DNA of 52,100 nucleotides from Candidatus Bathyarchaeota archaeon (lineage in GTDB: Archaea > Thermoproteota > Bathyarchaeia > Bathyarchaeales > WUQV01): assembly GCA_029934005.1 (NCBI GenBank), contig JAOZNA010000001.1, forward strand, positions 1-52,100, read 5' to 3'. Below, one piece after another: positions 40,313 to 52,100 of the stretch (positions are counted from its first letter, which is position 1; each line of letters starts with the position of its first letter). The notes beneath the pieces are model-generated. The model made no database searches. It had not been told where the DNA came from and saw only the letters and a program-made list of their open reading frames with translations. The position numbers and the translations under genes were made by a program.

Positions 40313-42712
40313 ATGAAAAAGTGGTTTATGAAATCGTTAGTGATAGCAGTAGCTGCGATATTCCTTTTGAGTGTTTTTGGCGCAATAAACATTAAGCCAG
40401 CAAAAGCTGCGAGCATTCATATATGGACGGTTCCGTCAACAATAAGCTACACAACTGAAACGATGCCTGCTTCGGGTAGATTTAATGTTTCATTCTGGAT
40501 AGAGACTGACATAGGGATTGGCGGAGTTCAGGTTGTTCCAATATATGAGCATGGTGTTATTAATGTTACAAGATGGTTCGAGCCGACCTGGGACACCAAC
40601 TATATATTCTGGGGACAAGGAACTTCTGCCAGTCCAGTTCCACCAAAAACTGGTTACATTTACATAAATACAACTCATTCAAAGGCTAAACAAGCGGTCA
40701 ACTTGTTCCCGACGCCACCTGCCCAGCCAGCTTTCAAGGGGACGGGCTTGGTATACATTTTGGAGTTCGAGATTGTCGGGGTTCCTGATAAGTATGAAAC
40801 TTTGGATTCGTTGATTTACATTGATACCGCTGAGACCTACGTCATGGACGAGACTGGTGCAAAGATTGATGTTTTCCAGAAGGATGGTGCTTATTACTCG
40901 CTTGAATGGGCTATGCCTCCAGCGCCCTATATGGGTGTTGAACCCACACTCGTAGAATACGACCAGTTCACGGATGCTGTCGGCCAAGTTTTCCAAGTTG
41001 ACCTCTACATTAAGAACTTGGCTGAAGCTTGGCACCTATCTAATGCAAGCTTTAAGCTTGTTTATAACGCGACAATAATCGACGTTATTGGCGACATGGG
41101 TAATGTTAGCATAGCACCAATTTGGGGTACTTACACAGTTACTTTCCACCGAGACCCAGATCCAGCGGTCCTTGATTACATTGAGTTTGTGGTTAAGGAT
41201 CCAACTGAAACTCCTGGTGGTACAACTCCGGCTGACGAGCTGGTTGCGTCAATTAACTTCACTGTACAATTACAGATGCCTGGTCCGCCAGTAGGATATA
41301 TTGAGTCGCCGTTGGACTTCACGGATGTTTCATTCTATGATACGGTTGGGCCGATTACGCCTGATGCTCCAATAAATGGTATAGTGAGAATCTGGAACAG
41401 ACTACCACTACCACTACCATGGTTTGAGGTACAACCAGACCTAGTAGAATTCGGGCCAGCCTATGAAGTTGGAACTACATTTAGCATTGATGTAGTTCTA
41501 ACTGGTCCAGACCCAACTGGCCTACACTACGCATGGTACGCAATCGGATGGCAATTAAGACTACTCTACGACGCAGACCTCCTCGATGTAGTTAATGTAG
41601 AAGAAGGACCATTCCTAAAGGATGGACCATGGAACCTACACGGAACATTCTTCACAAGCAGAGTAGAATCAGACGGTGTGTACGGACCACATGTAGTAAT
41701 GGCTGAAATGCTCTTACCTAACGCCAGCACTGGAGAATGGGACATGACAGTATGGCCCAACGGAACAGGCGTAATAGCAACAATAACATTTGAAATAATA
41801 AAGCAGGACATCAGTTGCGACCTAAGTCATTACTACGAATCCGAGTTTGGTCTCGCACCAGTATTCAATAACTGGATAATCAGCAAGGATGGAACATGGA
41901 TACCAGTAAATGAAACCCAAAATGTAAATGGTACATATAGAATTTATGATTCTCCAATATTGGGAAGACAAATTGACCTTTACGGTGGAGCAAACAACGC
42001 TGGCTATGGTGCATCTGTATTCCCAGAACCATACGGCGGACAAGGACCAAACAACCCAATGGACCTAGTAATTCCACAGTCAGAAGTATACCTCTACGCC
42101 CTAGTAACCTATAACTGCTGGCCAGTACAATCAAAGATTGTAAGCTTCGAAATACAATATCCAAACGGCACAGCATTCGCCAAATTCACAGCAATAACAA
42201 ACGCTTCAGGTGTTGCGTCCATAACGTTCAGAATGCCATGGCCATGTGATAATCCAGAAGACTTGTTCGGAGTATGGAAAGTAATCGCAACTGTTGATAT
42301 AGCAGATGTAGTCGTTAACGACACCATGGAATTCCACTACGACTACATGATACACATATGGAAAGTAACAACAGACAAATACTACTATGCACACGGAGAA
42401 TATGTGCAGATAACAGTTGAATACGGCACGCATGCACAACAATCCTATCCAGGACTATTCACTGTAGTGATTACAGATGACCTTGGTGTTCCAATAGGCT
42501 TAGATGCAAGCTTCATACTAAACATTACTGGAGCAGTATTCTGTCAATACTACAATGATAGCTTCACAGTGTCAATCTTCATACCGAAGTGGGCTTATGC
42601 GGGCTATGCATACGTGCACGTTAACTGCTATGACAAGGAGCCTGCCGAAGGCGGCTTCGCATGGTGTCCAGAATACACGCCTGCACCAGAGATATTCATC
42701 AAACCAGAGTAG
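40313..42712 (+). CDS. secreted multi-cohesin-like protein (family N-module plus two cohesin-like modules plus two Ig-like C-terminal domains)
   Basis: Signal peptide ending AKA/AS. The family N-module spans 40409..40909 (IHIWTVPSTI...FNVSFWIETD..GGVQV...WFEPTW...NLFPTPP...GTGLVYILEFEI). Two further modules carry cohesin-type patterns (VFQVDLYIKNL...FKLVYNATIIDV; FSIDVVL...WQLRLLYDADLLDVVNVEEGPFL...GTGVIATITFEI). No dockerin and no C-terminal anchor. Confidence 0.75.
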   Translation: MKKWFMKSLVIAVAAIFLLSVFGAINIKPAKAASIHIWTVPSTISYTTETMPASGRFNVSFWIETDIGIGGVQVVPIYEHGVINVTRWFEPTWDTNYIFWGQGTSASPVPPKTGYIYINTTHSKAKQAVNLFPTPPAQPAFKGTGLVYILEFEIVGVPDKYETLDSLIYIDTAETYVMDETGAKIDVFQKDGAYYSLEWAMPPAPYMGVEPTLVEYDQFTDAVGQVFQVDLYIKNLAEAWHLSNASFKLVYNATIIDVIGDMGNVSIAPIWGTYTVTFHRDPDPAVLDYIEFVVKDPTETPGGTTPADELVASINFTVQLQMPGPPVGYIESPLDFTDVSFYDTVGPITPDAPINGIVRIWNRLPLPLPWFEVQPDLVEFGPAYEVGTTFSIDVVLTGPDPTGLHYAWYAIGWQLRLLYDADLLDVVNVEEGPFLKDGPWNLHGTFFTSRVESDGVYGPHVVMAEMLLPNASTGEWDMTVWPNGTGVIATITFEIIKQDISCDLSHYYESEFGLAPVFNNWIISKDGTWIPVNETQNVNGTYRIYDSPILGRQIDLYGGANNAGYGASVFPEPYGGQGPNNPMDLVIPQSEVYLYALVTYNCWPVQSKIVSFEIQYPNGTAFAKFTAITNASGVASITFRMPWPCDNPEDLFGVWKVIATVDIADVVVNDTMEFHYDYMIHIWKVTTDKYYYAHGEYVQITVEYGTHAQQSYPGLFTVVITDDLGVPIGLDASFILNITGAVFCQYYNDSFTVSIFIPKWAYAGYAYVHVNCYDKEPAEGGFAWCPEYTPAPEIFIKPE

Positions 42713-42849: not shown

Positions 42850-44508
42850 GTGATTGGTGAAGCATTTATGCAAAATCAAAAAAGAATAGAAAAACATCTA
42901 CTAGGCATATTTTCAATAACGTTCATAATTATCGCATTCTTAGCTAACCTTTCCCTTCTAACAATGGAAGAAAACACAGAACCCCTAACACCCCCCCTCA
43001 CCATAACAGCCCAAACAAACAAACAATCCTACCTCCTAAGACAAAAAATCTACATCCAAGGAAACATAACCCTAGACGGCACACCAGTATCAGACGCCTA
43101 CATAATACTCCAAATAAACAACCCACAAGACCAACCAACAACCTTCAGAACAATCCAAATAGGAAACCCAACCCAACACATGCCAATCAAAATACTAGAC
43201 ATCTCCATAACAGACCACGAAAACAACCCACTAGATACAATTCAAATCGGAACAAGCATACGAGTAATAGTAAAAGTCAACAACCCAGAACTAACCTCAC
43301 AAAACATATTCATAACAGCAACAGTCTTCGACGCCAACATGGTTCCAATCCAAACAGGCTTCTTAGAAACAACAATTCTACCAGAACAAACAATATCACC
43401 AAAATTCACAATATATATACCAAAATGGGCAATCTCAGGTAAAGCCCTAATATGCGCAAACGTATACAACAAAGAACCAAAACAAGGCGGAATAGCCTAC
43501 GCAAAAGAAAGAGCAGAATACTTCTACATAAGCAAAATCCAAAAAGGATACCTAGAACTCCCAGAAATCCAATTCCAAGACATACAAAACACGCCCGGAA
43601 AATACCAAACCTACATAACCCTACCACCAGACCCAAAAGCAGGAGAATACACCGCATACATCACAGGACAAGTAGACCCAATAACAATAAACCAAGAAAC
43701 AATCACATTCCAAGTGCAACAATCATCAGGCTACCCACCACAAGCATCATTCGCATACTGGCCAACCCCCTCCTACGAAAACATGACCCTAACCTTCGAC
43801 GCCTCATCATCAACAGCAGAAGGATTCAACGACACAATAATAAAGTATGAATGGGATTTCGGAGACGGAACACCAAAAATAATCAAAGAAGGAAACTACA
43901 CAAACCCACCAGACCCAACCATAACCCACGCATACACAACACCAGGCAACTACACAATAACCCTAAACGTAACAGACAACGAAGGACTATGGAGCACAAC
44001 CACAAAACCAATAGAAATACTGCCAGAATTCGGCCCAACAGCAGACTTCGAATGGTCACCATACCAACCATGGGTAAACCAAACAATAACCTTCAACGCC
44101 TCAAAAACCACAGTTGGCTGGTGCGCAAAAACAGCAAGATTCAGCCCAATAGCTAACTACGAATGGGATTTCGGAGACGGAACATCACCAATAACAACAA
44201 CAAACCCAATAATAACCTACAACTACACCCAACCAGGCAACTACTCAGTAACCCTAACAGTAACCGACGAAGATGGAAGAATAGACTCAGTAACTTACAC
44301 GATTGAAGTCTTAAATGTAACAACCAAATACTGCGACATAGACGGCGACGGAATGATTGACCTAGTAGACGTATATACAGTAGCAATGCATTTTGCCGCA
44401 GAAGAAGGAGACCCCAACTACGATCCAAGATGCGACATAGACGGCGACGGAGTAATTGACCTATTCGACTACTACACAGTATGCATGCACTACGGAGAAG
44501 ACCCCTAA
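42850..44508 (+). CDS. secreted PKD-repeat protein with C-terminal dockerin
   Basis: The likely start is ATG 42868, with GGTGA 8 nt upstream. It has a signal/anchor helix. An N-terminal two-domain unit is shared with the C-terminus of the 40313 gene (IPKWAISGKALICANVYNKEPKQGG). Two PKD repeats (YEWDFGDGT...H.Y..PGNY.[IV]TL.VTD) are followed by a duplicated dockerin. Confidence 0.85.
   Translation: MIGEAFMQNQKRIEKHLLGIFSITFIIIAFLANLSLLTMEENTEPLTPPLTITAQTNKQSYLLRQKIYIQGNITLDGTPVSDAYIILQINNPQDQPTTFRTIQIGNPTQHMPIKILDISITDHENNPLDTIQIGTSIRVIVKVNNPELTSQNIFITATVFDANMVPIQTGFLETTILPEQTISPKFTIYIPKWAISGKALICANVYNKEPKQGGIAYAKERAEYFYISKIQKGYLELPEIQFQDIQNTPGKYQTYITLPPDPKAGEYTAYITGQVDPITINQETITFQVQQSSGYPPQASFAYWPTPSYENMTLTFDASSSTAEGFNDTIIKYEWDFGDGTPKIIKEGNYTNPPDPTITHAYTTPGNYTITLNVTDNEGLWSTTTKPIEILPEFGPTADFEWSPYQPWVNQTITFNASKTTVGWCAKTARFSPIANYEWDFGDGTSPITTTNPIITYNYTQPGNYSVTLTVTDEDGRIDSVTYTIEVLNVTTKYCDIDGDGMIDLVDVYTVAMHFAAEEGDPNYDPRCDIDGDGVIDLFDYYTVCMHYGEDP
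43741..44310 (+). other. two tandem PKD domains (approximate limits)
   Basis: The motifs WDFGDGT, THAYTTPGNYTITLNVTDNEG and YNYTQPGNYSVTLTVTDEDG occur twice, about 95 aa apart. Confidence 0.85.
44326..44505 (+). other. dockerin module (two EF-hand-like Ca loops)
   Basis: DIDGDGMIDLVDVYTVAMHF...DPRCDIDGDGVIDLFDYYTVCMHYG. Both 12-residue loops fit D-x-[DN]-x-D-G-x-[IV]-D-x-x-D. Confidence 0.9.
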
Positions 44509-44617: not shown

Positions 44618-46465
44618 ATGAGAAAAACCATAACTTTTATATTAATAATTTTCCTCTCAATAGCAACACTCAGCATTCTAACAATTAACCCATCCCAAGC
44701 CCAAGAAGGAACAAGAATCTACACAATCCCCTCAACAATCATCAGATACTACAACGACACCTACGTAGGTTATCGCTTTAATGTTAGTTTCTGGATTGAA
44801 ACAGACCAGGAAGTCGGCGGAGTCCAAATCACTACCATCTTCAAACACAACATCATAAACGTAACCCAATGGTGGGAACCAAAATGGGACCCCAACTACA
44901 TATTCTACGGAGAAACAACCTCAGCCCTACCATACCCACCAAACCCAGGCTACACCCAGATAAACTCAACCCACTCCAGATCAAAAATAGCAGTAAACCT
45001 ATTCCCACCACCACCCACCCAAACACCATTCACAGGAACAGGCCTAATAGCCATACTAGAATTCGAAGTTAAAGTAATACCTCCAGAAAATGAAACCTAC
45101 AAATCCCCAATCTCAATAGACAACCCAGGCACATATATAATGCTTGCCGACGGGACTCAACTCAAAGAATTCACAAAAGAAAACGGATATTATGAAATAC
45201 ATGGTCCACCACCTCCACCAACTGGAACAAGAATTTTCATTGATCCACCAGAAATAATCGATCCAACAATGACTCCATCATCAATCTTTGACATAAACAT
45301 AACAATAGACGACTTCTTAGACATGAAAGTATGCATATTCAATCTGAGTTACGACCCCAACGTAATTGGCTATGTAACATTTGAAATCTTTCGAATCAAC
45401 GGAGAATTTCCAACATCGAAAATAATAGCTGACGACGAGGCAGGCTACGTTTGGGTAAAACTAAACTATTCAACACCAGTCACAACCTACGATCCACTAG
45501 CAATAATCCAAATAACATTCCACGTCGAAACATACGGATCAACCCCCCTCGACCTCCACGACACAAACATAACAGATCCAACTGGAACCCCAATAGAACA
45601 TGACGTCTACGACGGCTTCTTCGCCACACTAATACGCGACGTAGCAGTAACCGACATAATTCCATCAAGAACATGGACCTATGAAGGAACACCAATAAAC
45701 ATCACAGTAACCGTCAAAAACAAAGGAAATGTAAGCGAAACCTTCGACTTAACTCTATACTACGACTCCAACATAATAGAAACCAAAACAGTAACAGACT
45801 TACCTTCAGGTGAGGAAAGAAATGTAACGTTCACATGGGATACCACAGGAATTCCGGAAGGAAACTACACAATATCCGCTGAAGCCTCATATGTCCCCTA
45901 CGAATTCGACCCAACCGACAACTCCTTGACAGATGGCACAATATGGATAATGGAAAGAATTCACGATGTAGCAATAATAGACGTAGTAGTACCACGTTCA
46001 TGGGTTTACCAAGGCTGGCAAATCAACATCACAGTAACAGCCAAAAACCAAGGAAACTTCACAGAAACCTTTGATGTCACCCTATACTTCAACCAAACCC
46101 AAATAAAAACATGGAACATAATCGACTTGCCAGCTGGAGAAAAAATAGAACTGCAAATAACCTTAAACACTTCCCAATTCCAACCCTGCAGCAACTTCTC
46201 AATATGGGCGGAAGCCTCCCAAGTCCCCTACGAATACAACCTAACAAACAACATATTTTACGATGGTTACCTAAAAATCCGCCTCTACGGTGACATAAAC
46301 GGCGACGGAGTGATCGACTTAGTAGACGTATACGTAGTCTCCATGACATTCGGAACTTACGAAGGACATCCAAACTGGAATCCAGATGCAGACCTAAACC
46401 AAGATGGTCAAATAGACCTATTCGACATTTACATGGTATCTAAAAACTTCGCAAAAGAATGTTAA
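44618..46465 (+). CDS. secreted cohesin-like / CARDB-repeat protein with C-terminal dockerin (adaptor-like)
   Basis: Signal peptide (...INPSQA/QE), family N-module 44711..45199, and a PPPPP linker. A cohesin-like module follows (IFDINITIDDFLDMKVCIFNLSYDPNVIGYV...LAIIQITFHV). Then come two CARDB-type repeats and a duplicated dockerin. Confidence 0.85.
   Translation: MRKTITFILIIFLSIATLSILTINPSQAQEGTRIYTIPSTIIRYYNDTYVGYRFNVSFWIETDQEVGGVQITTIFKHNIINVTQWWEPKWDPNYIFYGETTSALPYPPNPGYTQINSTHSRSKIAVNLFPPPPTQTPFTGTGLIAILEFEVKVIPPENETYKSPISIDNPGTYIMLADGTQLKEFTKENGYYEIHGPPPPPTGTRIFIDPPEIIDPTMTPSSIFDINITIDDFLDMKVCIFNLSYDPNVIGYVTFEIFRINGEFPTSKIIADDEAGYVWVKLNYSTPVTTYDPLAIIQITFHVETYGSTPLDLHDTNITDPTGTPIEHDVYDGFFATLIRDVAVTDIIPSRTWTYEGTPINITVTVKNKGNVSETFDLTLYYDSNIIETKTVTDLPSGEERNVTFTWDTTGIPEGNYTISAEASYVPYEFDPTDNSLTDGTIWIMERIHDVAIIDVVVPRSWVYQGWQINITVTAKNQGNFTETFDVTLYFNQTQIKTWNIIDLPAGEKIELQITLNTSQFQPCSNFSIWAEASQVPYEYNLTNNIFYDGYLKIRLYGDINGDGVIDLVDVYVVSMTFGTYEGHPNWNPDADLNQDGQIDLFDIYMVSKNFAKEC
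44765..45072 (+). repeat. near-identical nucleotide block shared by three paralogs (copy 1)
   Basis: The string gtaggttatcgctttaatgtt...gaaacagaccaggaagtcggcggagtccaaatcactaccatcttcaaacacaacatcataaacgtaacccaatggtgggaacc recurs almost base for base at 46728 and 50374. The tail cccactccagatcaaaaatagcagtaaacctattcccaccaccaccc...ccatactagaattcgaagttaa is identical to copy 3. Confidence 0.85.
45635..46280 (+). other. two tandem CARDB-like domains (approximate limits)
   Basis: RDVAVTDIIPSRTWTYEGTPINITVTVKNKGNVSETFDLTLYYD...LPSGEERNVTFTWDT and HDVAIIDVVVPRSWVYQGWQINITVTAKNQGNFTETFDVTLYFN...LPAGEKIELQITLNT. Confidence 0.8.
46283..46462 (+). other. dockerin module (two EF-hand-like Ca loops)
   Basis: LYGDINGDGVIDLVDVYVVSMTFGTYEGHPNWNPDADLNQDGQIDLFDIYMVSKNF. 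Confidence 0.9.
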
Positions 46466-46555: not shown

Positions 46556-48259
46556 TTGAATAGAAAAAAGGCAATATGCATCTCATTAATGCTCGCTTTA
46601 TTCCTCACATCAACAATAGCAATTTTAGCAACAGCCAAACAACCAAACCAGGTGGAACCACAACAAGCCACAACAAGAATATGGATACAACCATCCCAAA
46701 TAAAATGTTATTCAGGAGATGTCTACGTAGGTTATCGCTTTAACGTTACTTTTTGGATTGAAACAGACCAGGAAGTCGGCGGAGTCCAAATCACTACCAT
46801 CTTCAAACACAACATCATAAACGTAACCCAATGGTGGGAACCCACATGGAACTCCAGCTACATATTCTACGGAAAAACAACATCAGCCCCACCATTCCCA
46901 CCAAACCCAGGCTACTATCAAATAAACGCAACCCACTCCAGATCAAAAATAGCAGTAAACCTATTCCCACCACCACCCGCTCAAACACCATTCACAGGGA
47001 CGGGCTTAATAGCCATATTACAATTTGAAATTGTGAGTATGCCTAACGAAACGGTTACAAAACTGTCTTCACCACTTAGTATTAACAATGATGGTACATA
47101 TCTGTTTCTGGCTGATGGCAATCCGCTGAGAGAATTTACGAAGGAAGATGGCTCTTACGAAATCGAATTTACAACAATACCACCAATGTCCTTGGATGTG
47201 AATCCTCAAAAAATAGAGTTCACTCCCTACTCTTCAGCAATAGGGCAAAAATTCGACATCAGCCTAAGTGCAGTAGGAGTCGGAACATTCCATGATTTAC
47301 ACAAGATAACATTCCTATTCACATACAACAGCACTTTACTATCAACAAACGAAACCAACATACACATCAATGCCTTCTGGGGAACATCCAGTAAAAGTGT
47401 CACCGACGGAACAATAAACATAACCATTTCGAATCCAACCTCAACTCCAGAAGGAACAATTCTAATAGCAAACATAACATTTGAAATAACATATCAAAAT
47501 GAAGTCCCACCAGGCTCTCTAAAAGACTATAGCTCATCCTCCCTTACATTCCAAAACTACCACGCTTACAACAGTACGGGTGGAGAAATAAACATAGCAG
47601 ATCCTGGAGCATGCACGGTAATAGTATATCCAAGGTTCACTGGAACAGTCCAAATAGGAATTTCCGATCCCATGCCAATAAATGTAACAACAGGACAAAT
47701 TATCGAAGGAATCAACTACGTTGACATCGCATATATCAAGAAACAAGGAGCATACGACGCTGACCACTACGTGATAAATATAACAACATCAGAAATATAC
47801 AATGTAACAGAAATTAACATCAAATTGAAATACGACCCAGAAAGGACCAATTATCGTTATCATGCAAAATTCCACGGCAATCTCTTCACAAAGTATGGCA
47901 TTGACTACAACATTACCGATGATGAAAAAGGAAATGTTTCAATCACCATCCTAGCAAAGCGTGTGCCAATCTTCAGCGGAACAATAATTCAATTAGCATT
48001 CTACGTACCAGAAGGTTCAGATTGTTATGACATCGTCAAAAGTGTTGGACAATGCACCACACTAATAAACATAACAGAGGTTTCAATGAAAGACGGAAAA
48101 GGAAACGTCATACCAACATCAATACAAACCCCAAGCACCACAATCCTAATGACTCCCGAATTCCCATCATCAATATCAATTCTAATAATGCTAACAATAT
48201 TAACTGGTACCATAATAATAGCCAAAACCAGAAATCAAAGAAATAGGAAAAAGCAATAA
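46556..48259 (+). CDS. surface protein with cohesin-like modules and a PEF-CTERM anchor signal
   Basis: TTG start with GGAGGA upstream, and a signal peptide. The family N-module spans 46673..47170. Two further cohesin-like modules are present (IGQKFDISLSAVGVGTFHDLHKITFLFTYNSTLLS...GTILIANITFEI; EINIKLKYDPERT...GTIIQLAFYV). The C-terminus is PEF + TM + basic tail. Many N-x-S/T sequons. Confidence 0.85.
   Translation: MNRKKAICISLMLALFLTSTIAILATAKQPNQVEPQQATTRIWIQPSQIKCYSGDVYVGYRFNVTFWIETDQEVGGVQITTIFKHNIINVTQWWEPTWNSSYIFYGKTTSAPPFPPNPGYYQINATHSRSKIAVNLFPPPPAQTPFTGTGLIAILQFEIVSMPNETVTKLSSPLSINNDGTYLFLADGNPLREFTKEDGSYEIEFTTIPPMSLDVNPQKIEFTPYSSAIGQKFDISLSAVGVGTFHDLHKITFLFTYNSTLLSTNETNIHINAFWGTSSKSVTDGTINITISNPTSTPEGTILIANITFEITYQNEVPPGSLKDYSSSSLTFQNYHAYNSTGGEINIADPGACTVIVYPRFTGTVQIGISDPMPINVTTGQIIEGINYVDIAYIKKQGAYDADHYVINITTSEIYNVTEINIKLKYDPERTNYRYHAKFHGNLFTKYGIDYNITDDEKGNVSITILAKRVPIFSGTIIQLAFYVPEGSDCYDIVKSVGQCTTLINITEVSMKDGKGNVIPTSIQTPSTTILMTPEFPSSISILIMLTILTGTIIIAKTRNQRNRKKQ
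46728..47032 (+). repeat. near-identical nucleotide block (copy 2)
   Basis: Same block as 44765..45072. The central roughly 115 nt are identical by eye and the flanks of the gene are diverged. Confidence 0.85.
48155..48256 (+). other. PEF-CTERM-type sorting signal
   Basis: PEFPSSISILIMLTILTGTIIIAKTRNQRNRKKQ at the extreme C-terminus: tripeptide, about 20 hydrophobic residues, then an Arg/Lys cluster. Confidence 0.8.
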
Positions 48260-48260
48260 C

Positions 48261-48274
48261 TTCCCCTCTTTTTT
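48261..48274 (+). terminator. C-tract followed by oligo-T
   Basis: ttcccctctttttt lies directly after the stop at 48259. The same ttcccctctttt string follows the next paralog. Confidence 0.5.
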
Positions 48275-48426
48275 AAAACAACAGAACCTTATTCAAATTA
48301 TGGAACCTCACTCTCCATTTAACGGATAAACCTGACTCCAATCCATCAAAATTTCCACAGTCAACAAACAAAGCCTTAAAATAGAAAAACTTTTATAATT
48401 TCATTAAAAACTCAGGTGACCAAATC

Positions 48427-50058
48427 ATGAAAAAATCGTTAATTCTAATCCTCACAACCTCAATTCTAATCATCAGCACATTCACCACAATAACTCCATC
48501 AACAACATTAAAATCTCCAATAAAACCAGCTGCAGCCAACGGCACAAAAATCTGGACAACACCCTCAAACATCACATTATATACAAACGAAACCATTGCA
48601 GGTCAAAAATTCAATGTTAGCTTCTGGCTAACAACCGATAAGGAAGTTGGCGGGGTTCAAATAACAACCTTTTTCAAACATGATGTTATCAATATAACAA
48701 GATGGTTTGAACCCTCATGGAACTCCAGCTACCTATTCTACAATAAAACAACGTCTGCTCTTCCACTTCCACCAAACCCAGGATACCGCCAAGTAAACTC
48801 AACCCATTCTAAATCAAAAATAGCAGTAAGCTTATTCCCACCACCAGATCAAGAGCCATTCACAGGAACAGGTCTAATAGCCATACTAGAATTCGAAGTT
48901 AATGCAATTCCAGAAGAAGGAAACAATCTAACCTCACTCATTTACATAAATAATTCGGAGACTTACTTAATGTTGGCAGACGGCAGCCAATTTCGGAATT
49001 TCACTAAAATGAATGGATACTATAAACTTTGCTGGAATTCACCACCTCAATCCATTGCAATAGAAGTCTATCCCAACCTAATCAAGTTTACACCTTACGA
49101 ATCAGCTGTCGGACAGAAATTCAATGTCACTGTAAGACTCAAAGGGGTTATTTCGGCATATGATCTACAAAGTGTTAATTTCTCACTAATTTATGATAAT
49201 GCTTTATTATCAACGAAACAATCAGATGTTAAAATCTGTGAACCATGGCAAAACTCTAAAGTAGAGACTGCTGAAAACTCAGTAAACGTAACGGTTTCAA
49301 ATCCTACTTCAACACCAAATGGGACAGTTCTACTTGCAAATGTTACATTCACCGTAAAATACCAAGATTCTGCTCCTCCACGTCATCTAAGCGATTATGA
49401 TTCATCAAAATTAAATTTTGAAGAATCTTACGCATACAGTAACGTCGTAGGAAGCTTAAACTTAACCTCCGTTGCCGGAGAAGTTAGAATTTATGCACGT
49501 TACAACGGTACAGTTAAATTGAGTCTCTCTGAGCCAATACCACTAGACACAATAATTCACTATTTAGACTCACCAAGTTTTCTAATCAACGTTAGCATAA
49601 GCGAAGTATTCGACATTAAAGAACTAAATTTCACCGTGAAATTTGACCCAAACATAGTTACTACACCTAACCAAACTTATTACCAGATCATCCTTCCAGA
49701 AGACTCGCTCTTTAACATCTACTCCGGACTTGCATTTGACTCATCCAGTGCTATCGAAAAGGGATTAATACACCTCAGAGTAACCCCACTTCCAGGTGCA
49801 GAATTTCCACACGCGTCAGGACTTTTATTCCAAATAAACTTCACATCTCTCAACAAGGGTACAACATATGTAAATGTAACTGATTTAACGCTTAGGGACA
49901 CTAAAGGAAACTCCGTTCCAATAGAGGGTTCAAGTTCTCAAGTTGAAATAATTCCAGAGTTCCCAAACATTTCAATTATAGCAGTGTTAATTACATTGTC
50001 AAGTATGGTCGCAATAATGACGAAAACAAAGAATAAAATGAAAGACAAAATTAAGTAA
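48427..50058 (+). CDS. surface protein with cohesin-like modules and a PEF-CTERM anchor signal (paralog of 46556)
   Basis: AGGTGA lies 8 nt upstream of the ATG, and there is a signal peptide. A more diverged copy of the family N-module spans 48544..49035. Cohesin-like modules follow (VGQKFNVTVRLKGVISAYDLQSVNFSLIYDNALLS...GTVLLANVTFTV; ELNFTVKFDPNIV...SGLLFQINFT). The C-terminus is a PEF-CTERM signal. Confidence 0.85.
   Translation: MKKSLILILTTSILIISTFTTITPSTTLKSPIKPAAANGTKIWTTPSNITLYTNETIAGQKFNVSFWLTTDKEVGGVQITTFFKHDVINITRWFEPSWNSSYLFYNKTTSALPLPPNPGYRQVNSTHSKSKIAVSLFPPPDQEPFTGTGLIAILEFEVNAIPEEGNNLTSLIYINNSETYLMLADGSQFRNFTKMNGYYKLCWNSPPQSIAIEVYPNLIKFTPYESAVGQKFNVTVRLKGVISAYDLQSVNFSLIYDNALLSTKQSDVKICEPWQNSKVETAENSVNVTVSNPTSTPNGTVLLANVTFTVKYQDSAPPRHLSDYDSSKLNFEESYAYSNVVGSLNLTSVAGEVRIYARYNGTVKLSLSEPIPLDTIIHYLDSPSFLINVSISEVFDIKELNFTVKFDPNIVTTPNQTYYQIILPEDSLFNIYSGLAFDSSSAIEKGLIHLRVTPLPGAEFPHASGLLFQINFTSLNKGTTYVNVTDLTLRDTKGNSVPIEGSSSQVEIIPEFPNISIIAVLITLSSMVAIMTKTKNKMKDKIK
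49954..50055 (+). other. PEF-CTERM-type sorting signal
   Basis: PEFPNISIIAVLITLSSMVAIMTKTKNKMKDKIK at the extreme C-terminus. Confidence 0.8.
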
Positions 50059-50072: not shown

Positions 50073-50192
50073 ATTGAGTTAAACTACATTTTCAGAATAT
50101 AAATCCAGAAAAATATTCTAGAGTAAAACTATACGAACAGTAAATTTCATATATAATATCAATTGTAACTATTGGTTTAGGTGAAAATTGGA

Positions 50193-52100
50193 ATGAGAAA
50201 AACAGCGATTTCAATATTTATCTTAATCCTATTGCTAATAATGAATACAGAATACGCGTTTCAAATTCAAGATGCCAAGATAAATAAATCTATAAGACCA
50301 ATGTCTCCAACAACAATTTGGGTGCAACCTTCAAATATCACGTTATTCAGTAATGAAGCATATGTGGGCTACCGCTTTAATGTTACTTTTTGGATTGAAA
50401 CAGACCAAGAAGTCGGCGGAGTCCAAATCAACACCATCTTCAAACACACCATCATAAACGTAACCCAATGGTGGGAACCCTCATGGAACTCCAGCTACAT
50501 ATTCCACGGAGAAATGACTTCCGCCTTGCCAACTCCACCAAACCCTGGCTACGCCCAGATAAACTCAACCCACTCCAGATCAAAAATAGCAGTAAACCTA
50601 TTCCCACCACCACCCACCCAAACACCATTCACAGGAACAGGCCTAATAGCCATACTAGAATTCGAAGTTAAGTCGCTTCCAAACGAAACTACTCCATTAT
50701 TGACTTCTTCTATTCACATAAACAACACACAAACATACATAATGCTGGCTGATGGTTCTCAGATGATAGAATTCCCAAAGACAGATGGATGGTACGAAAT
50801 TCACCATTATGTTCCTCCCCCATCCGAAGCTTGGCTTGAAGCCTCTCCAAGTCAACTTGAAATGTCCGAACCAAGACCATTCAATGTATCTATTCTAATA
50901 AAGAACGTAAGCGAGACGAACGAACTCATTGGCGTTCAATTCATGCTAAAATTTAACATGAGCAACCTAGAAGTTTTAAACATAATCGAAGGAGACTTTC
51001 TGAAACAATTTGCAAACCATGGTACACTTGTAAGCTACCGCGTAGACGAGGTATGGGAAGCCGTGGTATACAGTGAAATGATACTACCAAACGATACTGG
51101 ACAATGGGATCTACCAGTCTTTCCTAACGGCGAAGGAGAAATGGCTAAAATAACATTCCTACCAAAATACCACGAACAAGTATCCTTTAATCTCACAATT
51201 GAACCTGTCTTTGGCAATTTCTTCATGGACGTAAACGGCACATGGCTACCCTACTCCGAACCCAGAAATTGCTCATACACCTACACTCCACTGCCTTTAC
51301 CATTGCTAAAAACTGAACCAAGCCCGTGTGTAGCATCCAATGTTGGAGAAATCTTCGAACTAAACATCACAATAAGCAACCTTTCAGCCGAATGGAATCT
51401 GGTCTATTTCGAGCTTACACTTGACTTTAACGGATCCTATCTAAAAGCCTTGGATGTTATTGAAGGACCTTTCATGAGCCAGTTTGGAACCACAGAATTC
51501 AACTATGAAATCTTTAATAATTCAGTAACTCTAAACCTAACATTGCTTCCACCATACACCTTCCCCTACGGTGACGGAACATTAGTTCAAATAATTTTCA
51601 ATGCAACATCAAGACCTCCGGCAACATGCGACCTCGAAATAAACAACATTATTCTAAAAGATCCTCTGGACTACGATGTACTATATGATGTGATTCATGG
51701 ACGCTATACCATGGAAGAGCACATTATACATGAAATTGTTTGGAGTGGAATGACATTCCATGTTGAAACTTTAAGCAATGCTTCAGTGAGTAGCGTAATC
51801 TTCGATCAGCTGCATAGGCTTATACACTTCAATGTTACTGGATGGAGTGGAGTCTTAGGCTTCGTTAACGTGACTATTCCAAAGTCTCTTCTGTATGCTG
51901 ATCTTGAAGACTGGCTTGTAATAGTTGGAGGCGTCGAGGTAGTTCCAGTCGTAACTGAGCTTGATGACAGTGTTTTAATTTCATTTATGTGGAATTTCAG
52001 CAGCACTGTACCAGTTTATATTGTTGGTACTTCAGCGGCAACTCTAACTTACACTTTGATTATTGACTCCACTGTTGGCGGAACAACCCACCCATCACCC
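50193..52100 (+). CDS. secreted multi-cohesin-like protein, 3'-truncated by the window end
   Basis: Not in the ORF track because it has no stop. Hand translation from ATG 50193 (AGGTGA 8 nt upstream) stays open for all 636 codons to 52100. It has a signal peptide and the family N-module at 50310..50801. At least two classic cohesin-like modules follow (ELIGVQFMLKFNMSNLEVLNIIEGDFL...GEGEMAKITF; EIFELNITISNLSAEWNLVYFELTLDFNGSYLKALDVIEGPFM...GDGTLVQIIFNA). Confidence 0.8.
   Translation, partial: MRKTAISIFILILLLIMNTEYAFQIQDAKINKSIRPMSPTTIWVQPSNITLFSNEAYVGYRFNVTFWIETDQEVGGVQINTIFKHTIINVTQWWEPSWNSSYIFHGEMTSALPTPPNPGYAQINSTHSRSKIAVNLFPPPPTQTPFTGTGLIAILEFEVKSLPNETTPLLTSSIHINNTQTYIMLADGSQMIEFPKTDGWYEIHHYVPPPSEAWLEASPSQLEMSEPRPFNVSILIKNVSETNELIGVQFMLKFNMSNLEVLNIIEGDFLKQFANHGTLVSYRVDEVWEAVVYSEMILPNDTGQWDLPVFPNGEGEMAKITFLPKYHEQVSFNLTIEPVFGNFFMDVNGTWLPYSEPRNCSYTYTPLPLPLLKTEPSPCVASNVGEIFELNITISNLSAEWNLVYFELTLDFNGSYLKALDVIEGPFMSQFGTTEFNYEIFNNSVTLNLTLLPPYTFPYGDGTLVQIIFNATSRPPATCDLEINNIILKDPLDYDVLYDVIHGRYTMEEHIIHEIVWSGMTFHVETLSNASVSSVIFDQLHRLIHFNVTGWSGVLGFVNVTIPKSLLYADLEDWLVIVGGVEVVPVVTELDDSVLISFMWNFSSTVPVYIVGTSAATLTYTLIIDSTVGGTTHPSP
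50374..50671 (+). repeat. near-identical nucleotide block (copy 3)
   Basis: Same block. Its 3' part of roughly 100 nt is identical to copy 1. Confidence 0.85.

Follow-up and report, generated by a model that had tools for sequence, protein, structure and literature searches.

Cohesin-bearing proteins encoded at the end of a 52,100-nucleotide stretch of Candidatus Bathyarchaeota DNA have C-terminal tails with the motif Pro-Glu-Phe (PEF) or a variant of it, and these tails are probably the cognate sorting signals of an archaeosortase-family enzyme whose gene starts 98 bp downstream of the third of these carriers (carrier 3). The stretch, called the window here, is positions 1–52100 of contig C18 from a genome of 1.44 Mb that is 86% complete; C18 extends to 62461, and positions past 52100 continue the window numbering. 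Direct support comes from sequence features, adjacency, multiplicity, genome co-occurrence, catalytic residues, and cohesin homology. The original prediction, made on the window, had seen no archaeosortase there. This holds for positions 1–52100: a search of the whole genome with TIGR04178 and PF09721 found two family members only, one at C18:53.4–54.0 kb and the other on contig C101, and none in the window. However, the sortase gene starts 921 bp past the last window base. The apparent absence is due to the edge of the window, which ends exactly at a scaffold gap of 100 N (C18:52101–52200). The locus provides a concrete pair of enzyme and signal overlooked by current annotation pipelines, an NCBI homologue being labeled "hypothetical" and no curated subfamily or sorting-signal model being passed. 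To our knowledge, Bathyarchaeia are abundant and uncultured, and we know of almost nothing on the construction of their cell surface.

Tripartite tails on mostly unrelated proteins

Two adjacent paralogs, carriers 1 and 2, had been described in the original prediction as ending in tripartite tails of the exosortase/archaeosortase type (signature motif, hydrophobic helix, and basic cluster). Translation gave exactly this for both proteins, which share 41% identity and begin with N-terminal signal peptides (Table 1). Among the 47 open reading frames (ORFs) of the genome with at least 150 amino acids (aa), a C-terminal helix, and a basic tail, Pro-Glu (PE) was the last charged position before the helix in 10, compared with 0.73 expected (14-fold enrichment; binomial P = 2.5e-9). 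C34 (IPELK…) was added to the substrate set after this test. Two candidates were dropped, C98 for want of a leader and C32 as a polytopic permease (ending SPEF…). The final set lists ten predicted cargo proteins for this one genome, namely the three carriers, the NosD/beta-helix proteins C34, C91, and C110, and C61, C64, C65, and C69, which have no Pfam assignment; N-terminal leaders were present in 10/10. The tails had been expected to be simple membrane anchors if the genome held neither an archaeosortase nor other PEF-CTERM proteins. Instead, a sortase gene adjoins the cluster, and eight further tailed proteins were found besides carriers 1 and 2.

The aligned tails read (I/V)-P-E-(F/L/M/S), followed by ~20 uncharged residues and then the first Lys/Arg, and the distance from the motif to the basic cluster is fixed across unrelated proteins; with the tails removed, no similarity was detected in 41/55 protein pairs. 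When a profile of the tails (A2) was used, the ten members scored 37–47 bits (40.5 bits for carrier 1, itself a member), and the next-best ORF scored 13 bits. Although the ten tails match A2 by construction, this gap indicates that the set is sharply bounded.

Haft (10.1101/2023.06.07.544157) gives eight attributes of a tripartite sorting signal. Location at the extreme C-terminus and the succession of motif, helix, and basic cluster (attributes 1, 4, and 5) were seen in the ten tails and in 20/20 tails of relatives. Several tailed proteins per genome, signal peptides, members unrelated to one another, and homologues without a tail or with another one (attributes 2, 6, 7, and 8) were also found. 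As for attribute 3, conservation of P and E reaches at least 90%, while the residues on either side show conservation of character only in this genome (I/V preceding PE and F/L/M/S/T following it); in relatives, F dominates after PE.

Scans of whole proteins with NCBIfam missed the short tail models, and isolated tails were scanned instead. Scoring with the TIGRFAMs PEF-CTERM model (TIGR03024; cutoff 23), which had been suggested as a check, gave no passing tail, the best in the genome reaching 15.2 bits and that of carrier 2 reaching 11.1–11.3 bits. The PEFG-CTERM model (TIGR04296; cutoff 25) was likewise passed by no tail; it had no match among the window tails, and its best score in the genome was 23.9 bits (C91). 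The carrier 1 tail matched no curated sorting-signal model.

A module of ~90 aa lies directly upstream of the tail in 5/10 PEF-tailed proteins (C18:50181-52923, which is carrier 3 with two copies; C110:3063-4337; C34:9072-10958; C91:1441-3099; and C64:7214-8875). It follows the pattern …SNSTISxFxF…FNVTGxxGTxGFCNxTIPxxLL…WxVxVNG…TYIxxxYxHS…IxIxGxxAIPEF and had no match in Pfam or NCBIfam. Its junction IQIIGTWAIPEF was also found in the relatives G072, G090, and G062. Euryarchaeal PGF-CTERM proteins have a PGF-pre-PGF domain, of which this module seems to be a counterpart.

The enzyme encoded next to carrier 3

The protein encoded downstream of carrier 3 (the C18 enzyme) is a member of the exosortase/archaeosortase superfamily, passing the generic models TIGR04178 (55.2–59.1 bits; cutoff 23) and PF09721 (41.2 bits; cutoff 25.7). 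Cys250 (in WPCAG), Asn292, Arg295, and His315 were invariant in 14 homologues, and in a wider alignment the Arg and His were invariant in 45/45 sequences. A rough sketch based on hydropathy and the positive-inside rule predicts ~8–9 hydrophobic segments, with Cys250, Arg295, and His315 at the outer face. The enzyme family was present in 69/201 sampled genomes of the class. Many relatives with 34–41% identity to the C18 enzyme carry the JGI label "thaumarchaeosortase", and a family member in NCBI is annotated as a hypothetical protein from "Candidatus Bathyarchaeota archaeon".

The best specific model for the C18 enzyme was that of thaumarchaeosortase (TIGR04297), the counterpart of PEFG-CTERM in ammonia-oxidizing Nitrososphaeria. 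The alignment was near full-length (model positions 15–296/307), but the score of 55.7–58.9 bits fell short of the cutoff of 250, whereas genuine members gave 435–658 bits. In the phylum sample, TIGR04297 was passed in exactly one family (43/43 genomes), and over the window's class it gave a graded full-length series from 166 down to 41 bits; other families gave nothing, so that within this sample such enzymes occur only in that family and in the window's class. In a maximum-likelihood tree with the core of the C101-type enzyme as outgroup, 14 genuine thaumarchaeosortases formed one long-branched clade (100/100), which nested among 12 enzymes of the class including the C18 enzyme (98/100), although the root is uncertain because the single outgroup branch is very long.

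Arg295, His315, and the local motif WP-x-AG are common to all of these enzymes. In contrast, the nucleophile position (C18:53768-53770 = Cys250) is Ser (WPSAG) in 14/14 genuine thaumarchaeosortases and Cys in 29/30 enzymes of the class in the alignment. The nesting of the Ser-type clade within the Cys-type radiation points to a replacement of Cys by Ser on the branch that led to the ammonia oxidizers, and the two types offer a natural pair for mechanistic study. The tails of this genome share the P-E-F start of PEFG-CTERM but lack its G, and the cargo here includes cohesin carriers. No substrates for a direct comparison with PEFG tails were found in the flanks of genuine thaumarchaeosortase genes.

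The original prediction had named ArtC as the processing enzyme. ArtC (TIGR03762) is paired with PEF-CTERM in methanogens and ANME (anaerobic methanotrophic archaea) according to Haft et al. (2012), as related in PMC5244752. A divergent true ArtC/PEF-CTERM pair would account for the PEF reading of the motif; it belongs to the same superfamily and likewise assigns many substrates per genome to one enzyme. Besides, several tails align with TIGR03024 starting at model position 1 (11–17.6 bits), and TIGR03762 matches the C18 enzyme at E = 9e-15. However, the latter match (55.2–56.3 bits; cutoff 100) is confined to the catalytic core (positions 172–269/274), in contrast to the near full-length alignment of TIGR04297, and no tail exceeds 17.6 bits against the PEF-CTERM cutoff. 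Additionally, the genuine thaumarchaeosortases nest with the clade of the C18 enzyme, JGI calls its relatives thaumarchaeosortase, and ArtC belongs to a euryarchaeal lineage rather than to the window's class. The ArtC label is unsupported in view of this clustering and of the core-only alignment, and a true ArtC pair is very unlikely. The case against it rests on model scores, as the tree held no ArtC sequence. No ArtA model was present among the ten NCBIfam matches of the enzyme at E <= 0.1.

Distribution of the enzyme and the tail among genomes

In a sample of 200 genomes of the class, tail matches at E <= 1e-3 were found in 38/68 genomes with the sortase and in 5/132 without it (odds ratio 32; Fisher P = 5e-17), and leaving out the eight seed genomes gave P = 1e-13. 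Related genomes are not independent, so that the Fisher P values overstate the association. The contrast between families is safer: tails were present in 12/14 sortase-bearing families vs 0/16 sortase-free families, the latter comprising 89 genomes. At 8/29 loci of relatives (1.5-kb flanks, three other families), the product of the gene adjoining the orthologous sortase ends in IPEF, IPEI, IPET, IPDL, or ISEF followed by a helix and a basic cluster. With a profile built from the tails of those eight relatives only, tails of this genome were the top 5 of 5,776 ORFs, that of carrier 2 being the third-best match. All of the inspected non-seed tail matches (20/20) read (I/V)(I/V)PE(F/L), followed by a helix, basic residues, and the stop. 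Ten non-seed tails compared with NCBIfam scored 11–17.6 bits with PEF-CTERM and 6.5–20.5 bits with PEFG-CTERM, neither of which was passed.

The second sortase of the genome, a 687-aa exosortase-EpsI fusion on contig C101, might process the tails in place of the neighboring enzyme. It is an intact family member (PF09721, 115.8 bits), and the tail-positive genome G124, which has no C18-type enzyme, has one of the C101 type. However, the C101 type was present in only 12/43 tail-positive genomes and was absent from the tail-richest ones, G148 (19 tails), G090 (16), G098 (10), and G008 (8), all of which have the C18 type. Its own neighbors bear a different tail (…VVPQYPFGP…, …TIPYTPLG…). The tail tracks the C18-type sortase and not the C101 sortase, and it is extremely unlikely that the C101 enzyme processes the PEF tails.

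The tails could also be ordinary C-terminal transmembrane anchors that are kept on the mature proteins. In that case no processing would occur, and PE would reflect a preference in helix capping or in the linker. The failure of every curated sorting-signal model fits this explanation, as do the many carrier homologues with plain helix and basic tails lacking PE. Furthermore, of the five tail-positive genomes without a C18-type sortase, two contain a gene of the exosortase family (~4 kb away from the tail in G044), while no such gene was detected in G062, G020, and G034, which are 91–100% complete and have one to three genuine-looking tails. In these three genomes, either the sortase gene is unassembled or the tails act as plain anchors. 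On the other hand, unrelated proteins have the motif in common at a fixed distance from the basic cluster, PE is enriched far over expectation, and over 200 genomes the tail co-occurs with one sortase family and repeatedly adjoins its gene. A plain anchor is therefore an unlikely explanation.

Several points weigh against the pairing of the PEF tails with the C18 enzyme. In addition to the three genomes above, the overstated P values, and the failure of both tail models, 30/68 sortase-positive genomes had no tail match at E <= 1e-3, and distant carrier homologues end in other tails or are anchored by a plain helix. The basic cluster is rich in Lys and not in Arg. The enzyme fails both curated subfamily models (TIGR04297 and TIGR03762) and sits on a long branch in the tree, and the function of enzymes of its branch is putative. 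Even for ArtA, one-step transpeptidation is unproven (10.1101/2023.06.07.544157). With these points taken into account, the PEF tails are still probably the cognate signals of the C18 enzyme. The sorting system belongs to a known type of protein anchoring, of which it forms an uncatalogued branch, and is not a new kind; what is new at the locus is the cohesin cargo and the direct adjacency of carrier and sortase. New profile models for the enzyme branch and the tail would improve the annotation of surface proteomes across the class.

Cohesin carriers, proposed anchoring, and the gene cluster

Pfam Cohesin (PF00963; gathering threshold 24.1) matched carrier 2 at residues 225–312 with 24.8 bits and carrier 3 with 30.2 bits, and gave no match to carrier 1 alone. 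Searches of PDB with single carrier sequences gave no match. A profile of the family (A3; 29 near-full-length homologues) matched solved structures of scaffoldin cohesins at E < 0.005 in 19 distinct chains, with 3l8q_A ranking first (E = 3.9e-12). These profile matches indicate that the cohesin identity predicted for the carriers holds.

The carrier family is patchy within the order (6/61 genomes) and has 353 representatives in global data. Regex counts over the C-termini of the best 150 of these gave 28/150 endings with PE/PD, helix, and basic cluster (~24 being genuine (I/V)PE(F/L) tails on inspection), 35/150 dockerin-like endings, 18/150 other helix anchors, and 69/150 with neither or fragmentary. 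PEF-tailed members of the family are thus common in nature. Because the C-termini differ among the representatives, the tail is a modular addition, as is typical of sorting signals. The original prediction had regarded an archaeosortase-anchored cohesin carrier as a new anchoring solution. In the literature searched, no cohesin protein with an archaeosortase signal was described, and nothing linked Bathyarchaeota with archaeosortases in substance; as the survey shows, however, such proteins are not rare. A second ending recurred among carrier homologues, namely (P)PP(E/D)-L-T-L-Y or xDLxLY directly before the helix and Lys/Arg tail (representatives P0054, P0064, P0072, P0091, P0102, and P0162). 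This ending may represent another tail for sorting or anchoring that has no name.

The only archaeosortase studied experimentally is ArtA of Haloferax volcanii, which is required for the removal of the PGF-CTERM helix and the attachment of a prenyl-derived lipid (10.1101/2023.06.07.544157). Its motif (PGF) and subfamily differ from those of the C18 system, and the pre-tail module here parallels the PGF-pre-PGF domain. With ArtA as the mechanistic template, we propose the following course, in which cleavage, the cleavage site, lipid attachment, and the dockerin-cohesin pairings are inferred. The carriers would be exported through their N-terminal signal peptides and retained transiently by the C-terminal helix, the Lys/Arg cluster lying in the cytoplasm; this would place (I/V)-P-E-(F/L/M) at the outer face of the membrane. 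The Cys250/Arg295/His315 center, predicted at the same face, would cut at or near the motif and remove the helix, and the new C-terminus would be joined to a membrane lipid by analogy with ArtA/PGF-CTERM. The lipid-anchored carriers would then display their cohesin modules and hold the dockerin proteins of the cluster at the surface. The proteins encoded at 42850 and 44618, which contain dockerin domains according to Pfam, are likely ligands of the anchored carriers.

Cohesins homologous to those of the carriers occur in the anchoring scaffoldins of bacterial cellulosomes, which have domains of the S-layer homology (SLH) type or an LPXTG/sortase signal. Dockerin partners are encoded alongside the carriers here too, and the carriers are likewise predicted to be fixed to the surface by a C-terminal device. 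In contrast to the bacterial scaffoldins, the anchor here is an archaeosortase-type tail, presumably leading to a membrane lipid and not to SLH domains or peptidoglycan. Unlike cellulosomes, the cluster contains no glycoside hydrolases, with PKD/CARDB proteins and a peptide-binding protein as the partners. The tethering of archaeal cohesin-dockerin assemblies to the cell was left open in the ANME literature (PMC9012536), where SLH or sortase anchoring is given for bacteria only and S-layer-dockerin fusions are described in ANME-2c. The present locus offers a testable answer. A broader reading, which we advance tentatively and for which the chances seem slightly below even, is that a class-wide, uncatalogued archaeosortase/PEF-tail system of Bathyarchaeia fixes cohesin platforms covalently to membrane lipid, that dockerin-tagged proteins, including a nutrient-binding receptor, plug into them, and that the Cys-type enzyme is ancestral to the Ser-type thaumarchaeosortase of ammonia oxidizers. 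If this is true, a lipid-anchored archaeal docking scaffold would join SLH domains and the LPXTG sortase as a third means by which cohesin scaffolds are anchored.

Table 1 Features of the cohesin-dockerin cluster and of the adjoining part of contig C18.
Feature	Position	Strand	Description
Cohesin protein of the same family, without C-terminal anchor	40313..42712	+	Pfam Cohesin 31.1 bits; ends ...EIFIKPE*
PKD-repeat protein with terminal dockerin	42850..44508	+	Pfam PKD_4 106.9 bits; Dockerin_1 24.0 bits vs 22.9
Dockerin-bearing adaptor	44618..46465	+	N-module, cohesin-like module (Pfam Cohesin 18.5 bits, below cutoff), two CARDB (67.8 bits), dockerin (Dockerin_1 31.4 bits)
Cohesin-like carrier 1, 567 aa	46556..48259	+	signal peptide, shared N-module, further beta modules, PEF tail
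Sorting tail 1	48155..48256	+	PEFPSSISILIMLTILTGTIIIAKTRNQRNRKKQ; (T)PEF-PSS, 22-residue uncharged helix, KTRNQRNRKKQ
Cohesin carrier 2, 543 aa	48427..50058	+	signal peptide, N-module, cohesin module, third module, PEF tail
Sorting tail 2	49954..50055	+	PEFPNISIIAVLITLSSMVAIMTKTKNKMKDKIK; (I)PEF-PNIS, helix, KTKNKMKDKIK
Cohesin carrier 3, part in the window	50181..52100	+	crosses the 100-N gap; gene end 52923
Carrier 3 tail, beyond the window	52831-52920	+	AIPEMSS, helix, RRK; ends IQVIGTWAIPEMSSLTLLALLVILAAAVIMLRRKITFKA
Archaeosortase-family enzyme, 355 aa, beyond the window	53021-54088	+	assigned by generic family models
Large Flg_new_2 (InlB B-repeat) surface protein, beyond the window	54164-58446	+	ends QPSPDSS, helix, RKKVRKKS

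The coordinates of the cluster are collected in Table 1. In a relative with 87% identity from another metagenome, an uninterrupted ORF of 761 aa covers both halves of carrier 3, and the IPEM tail is kept ~100 bp upstream of its sortase. Scaffold gaps of 100 N are present at C18:52101-52200 and C18:56556-56655, both within tandem B-repeat regions of large surface-protein genes, and the gene calls over both gaps (carrier 3 and the large downstream protein) look split or frameshifted in the assembly.

In a relative with 79% identity (L066/L068 vs window 28110-52100), the sortase adjoins a peptide ATP-binding cassette (ABC) importer, and the cohesin/dockerin genes do not lie between them. This suggests that the ~12-kb cohesin-dockerin cluster was inserted or expanded between importer and sortase in a lineage-specific manner. 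The position and tail of the Flg_new_2 protein are kept in the same relative. This tail gave no score with profile A2, and the protein is possibly an eleventh substrate with a P-D variant of the signal.

In carrier 2, an N-x-S sequon directly follows PEF (window 49963-49971, PEF-PNIS). Overall, N-x-S/T sequons are very abundant in the carriers, in keeping with surface proteins that are heavily N-glycosylated.

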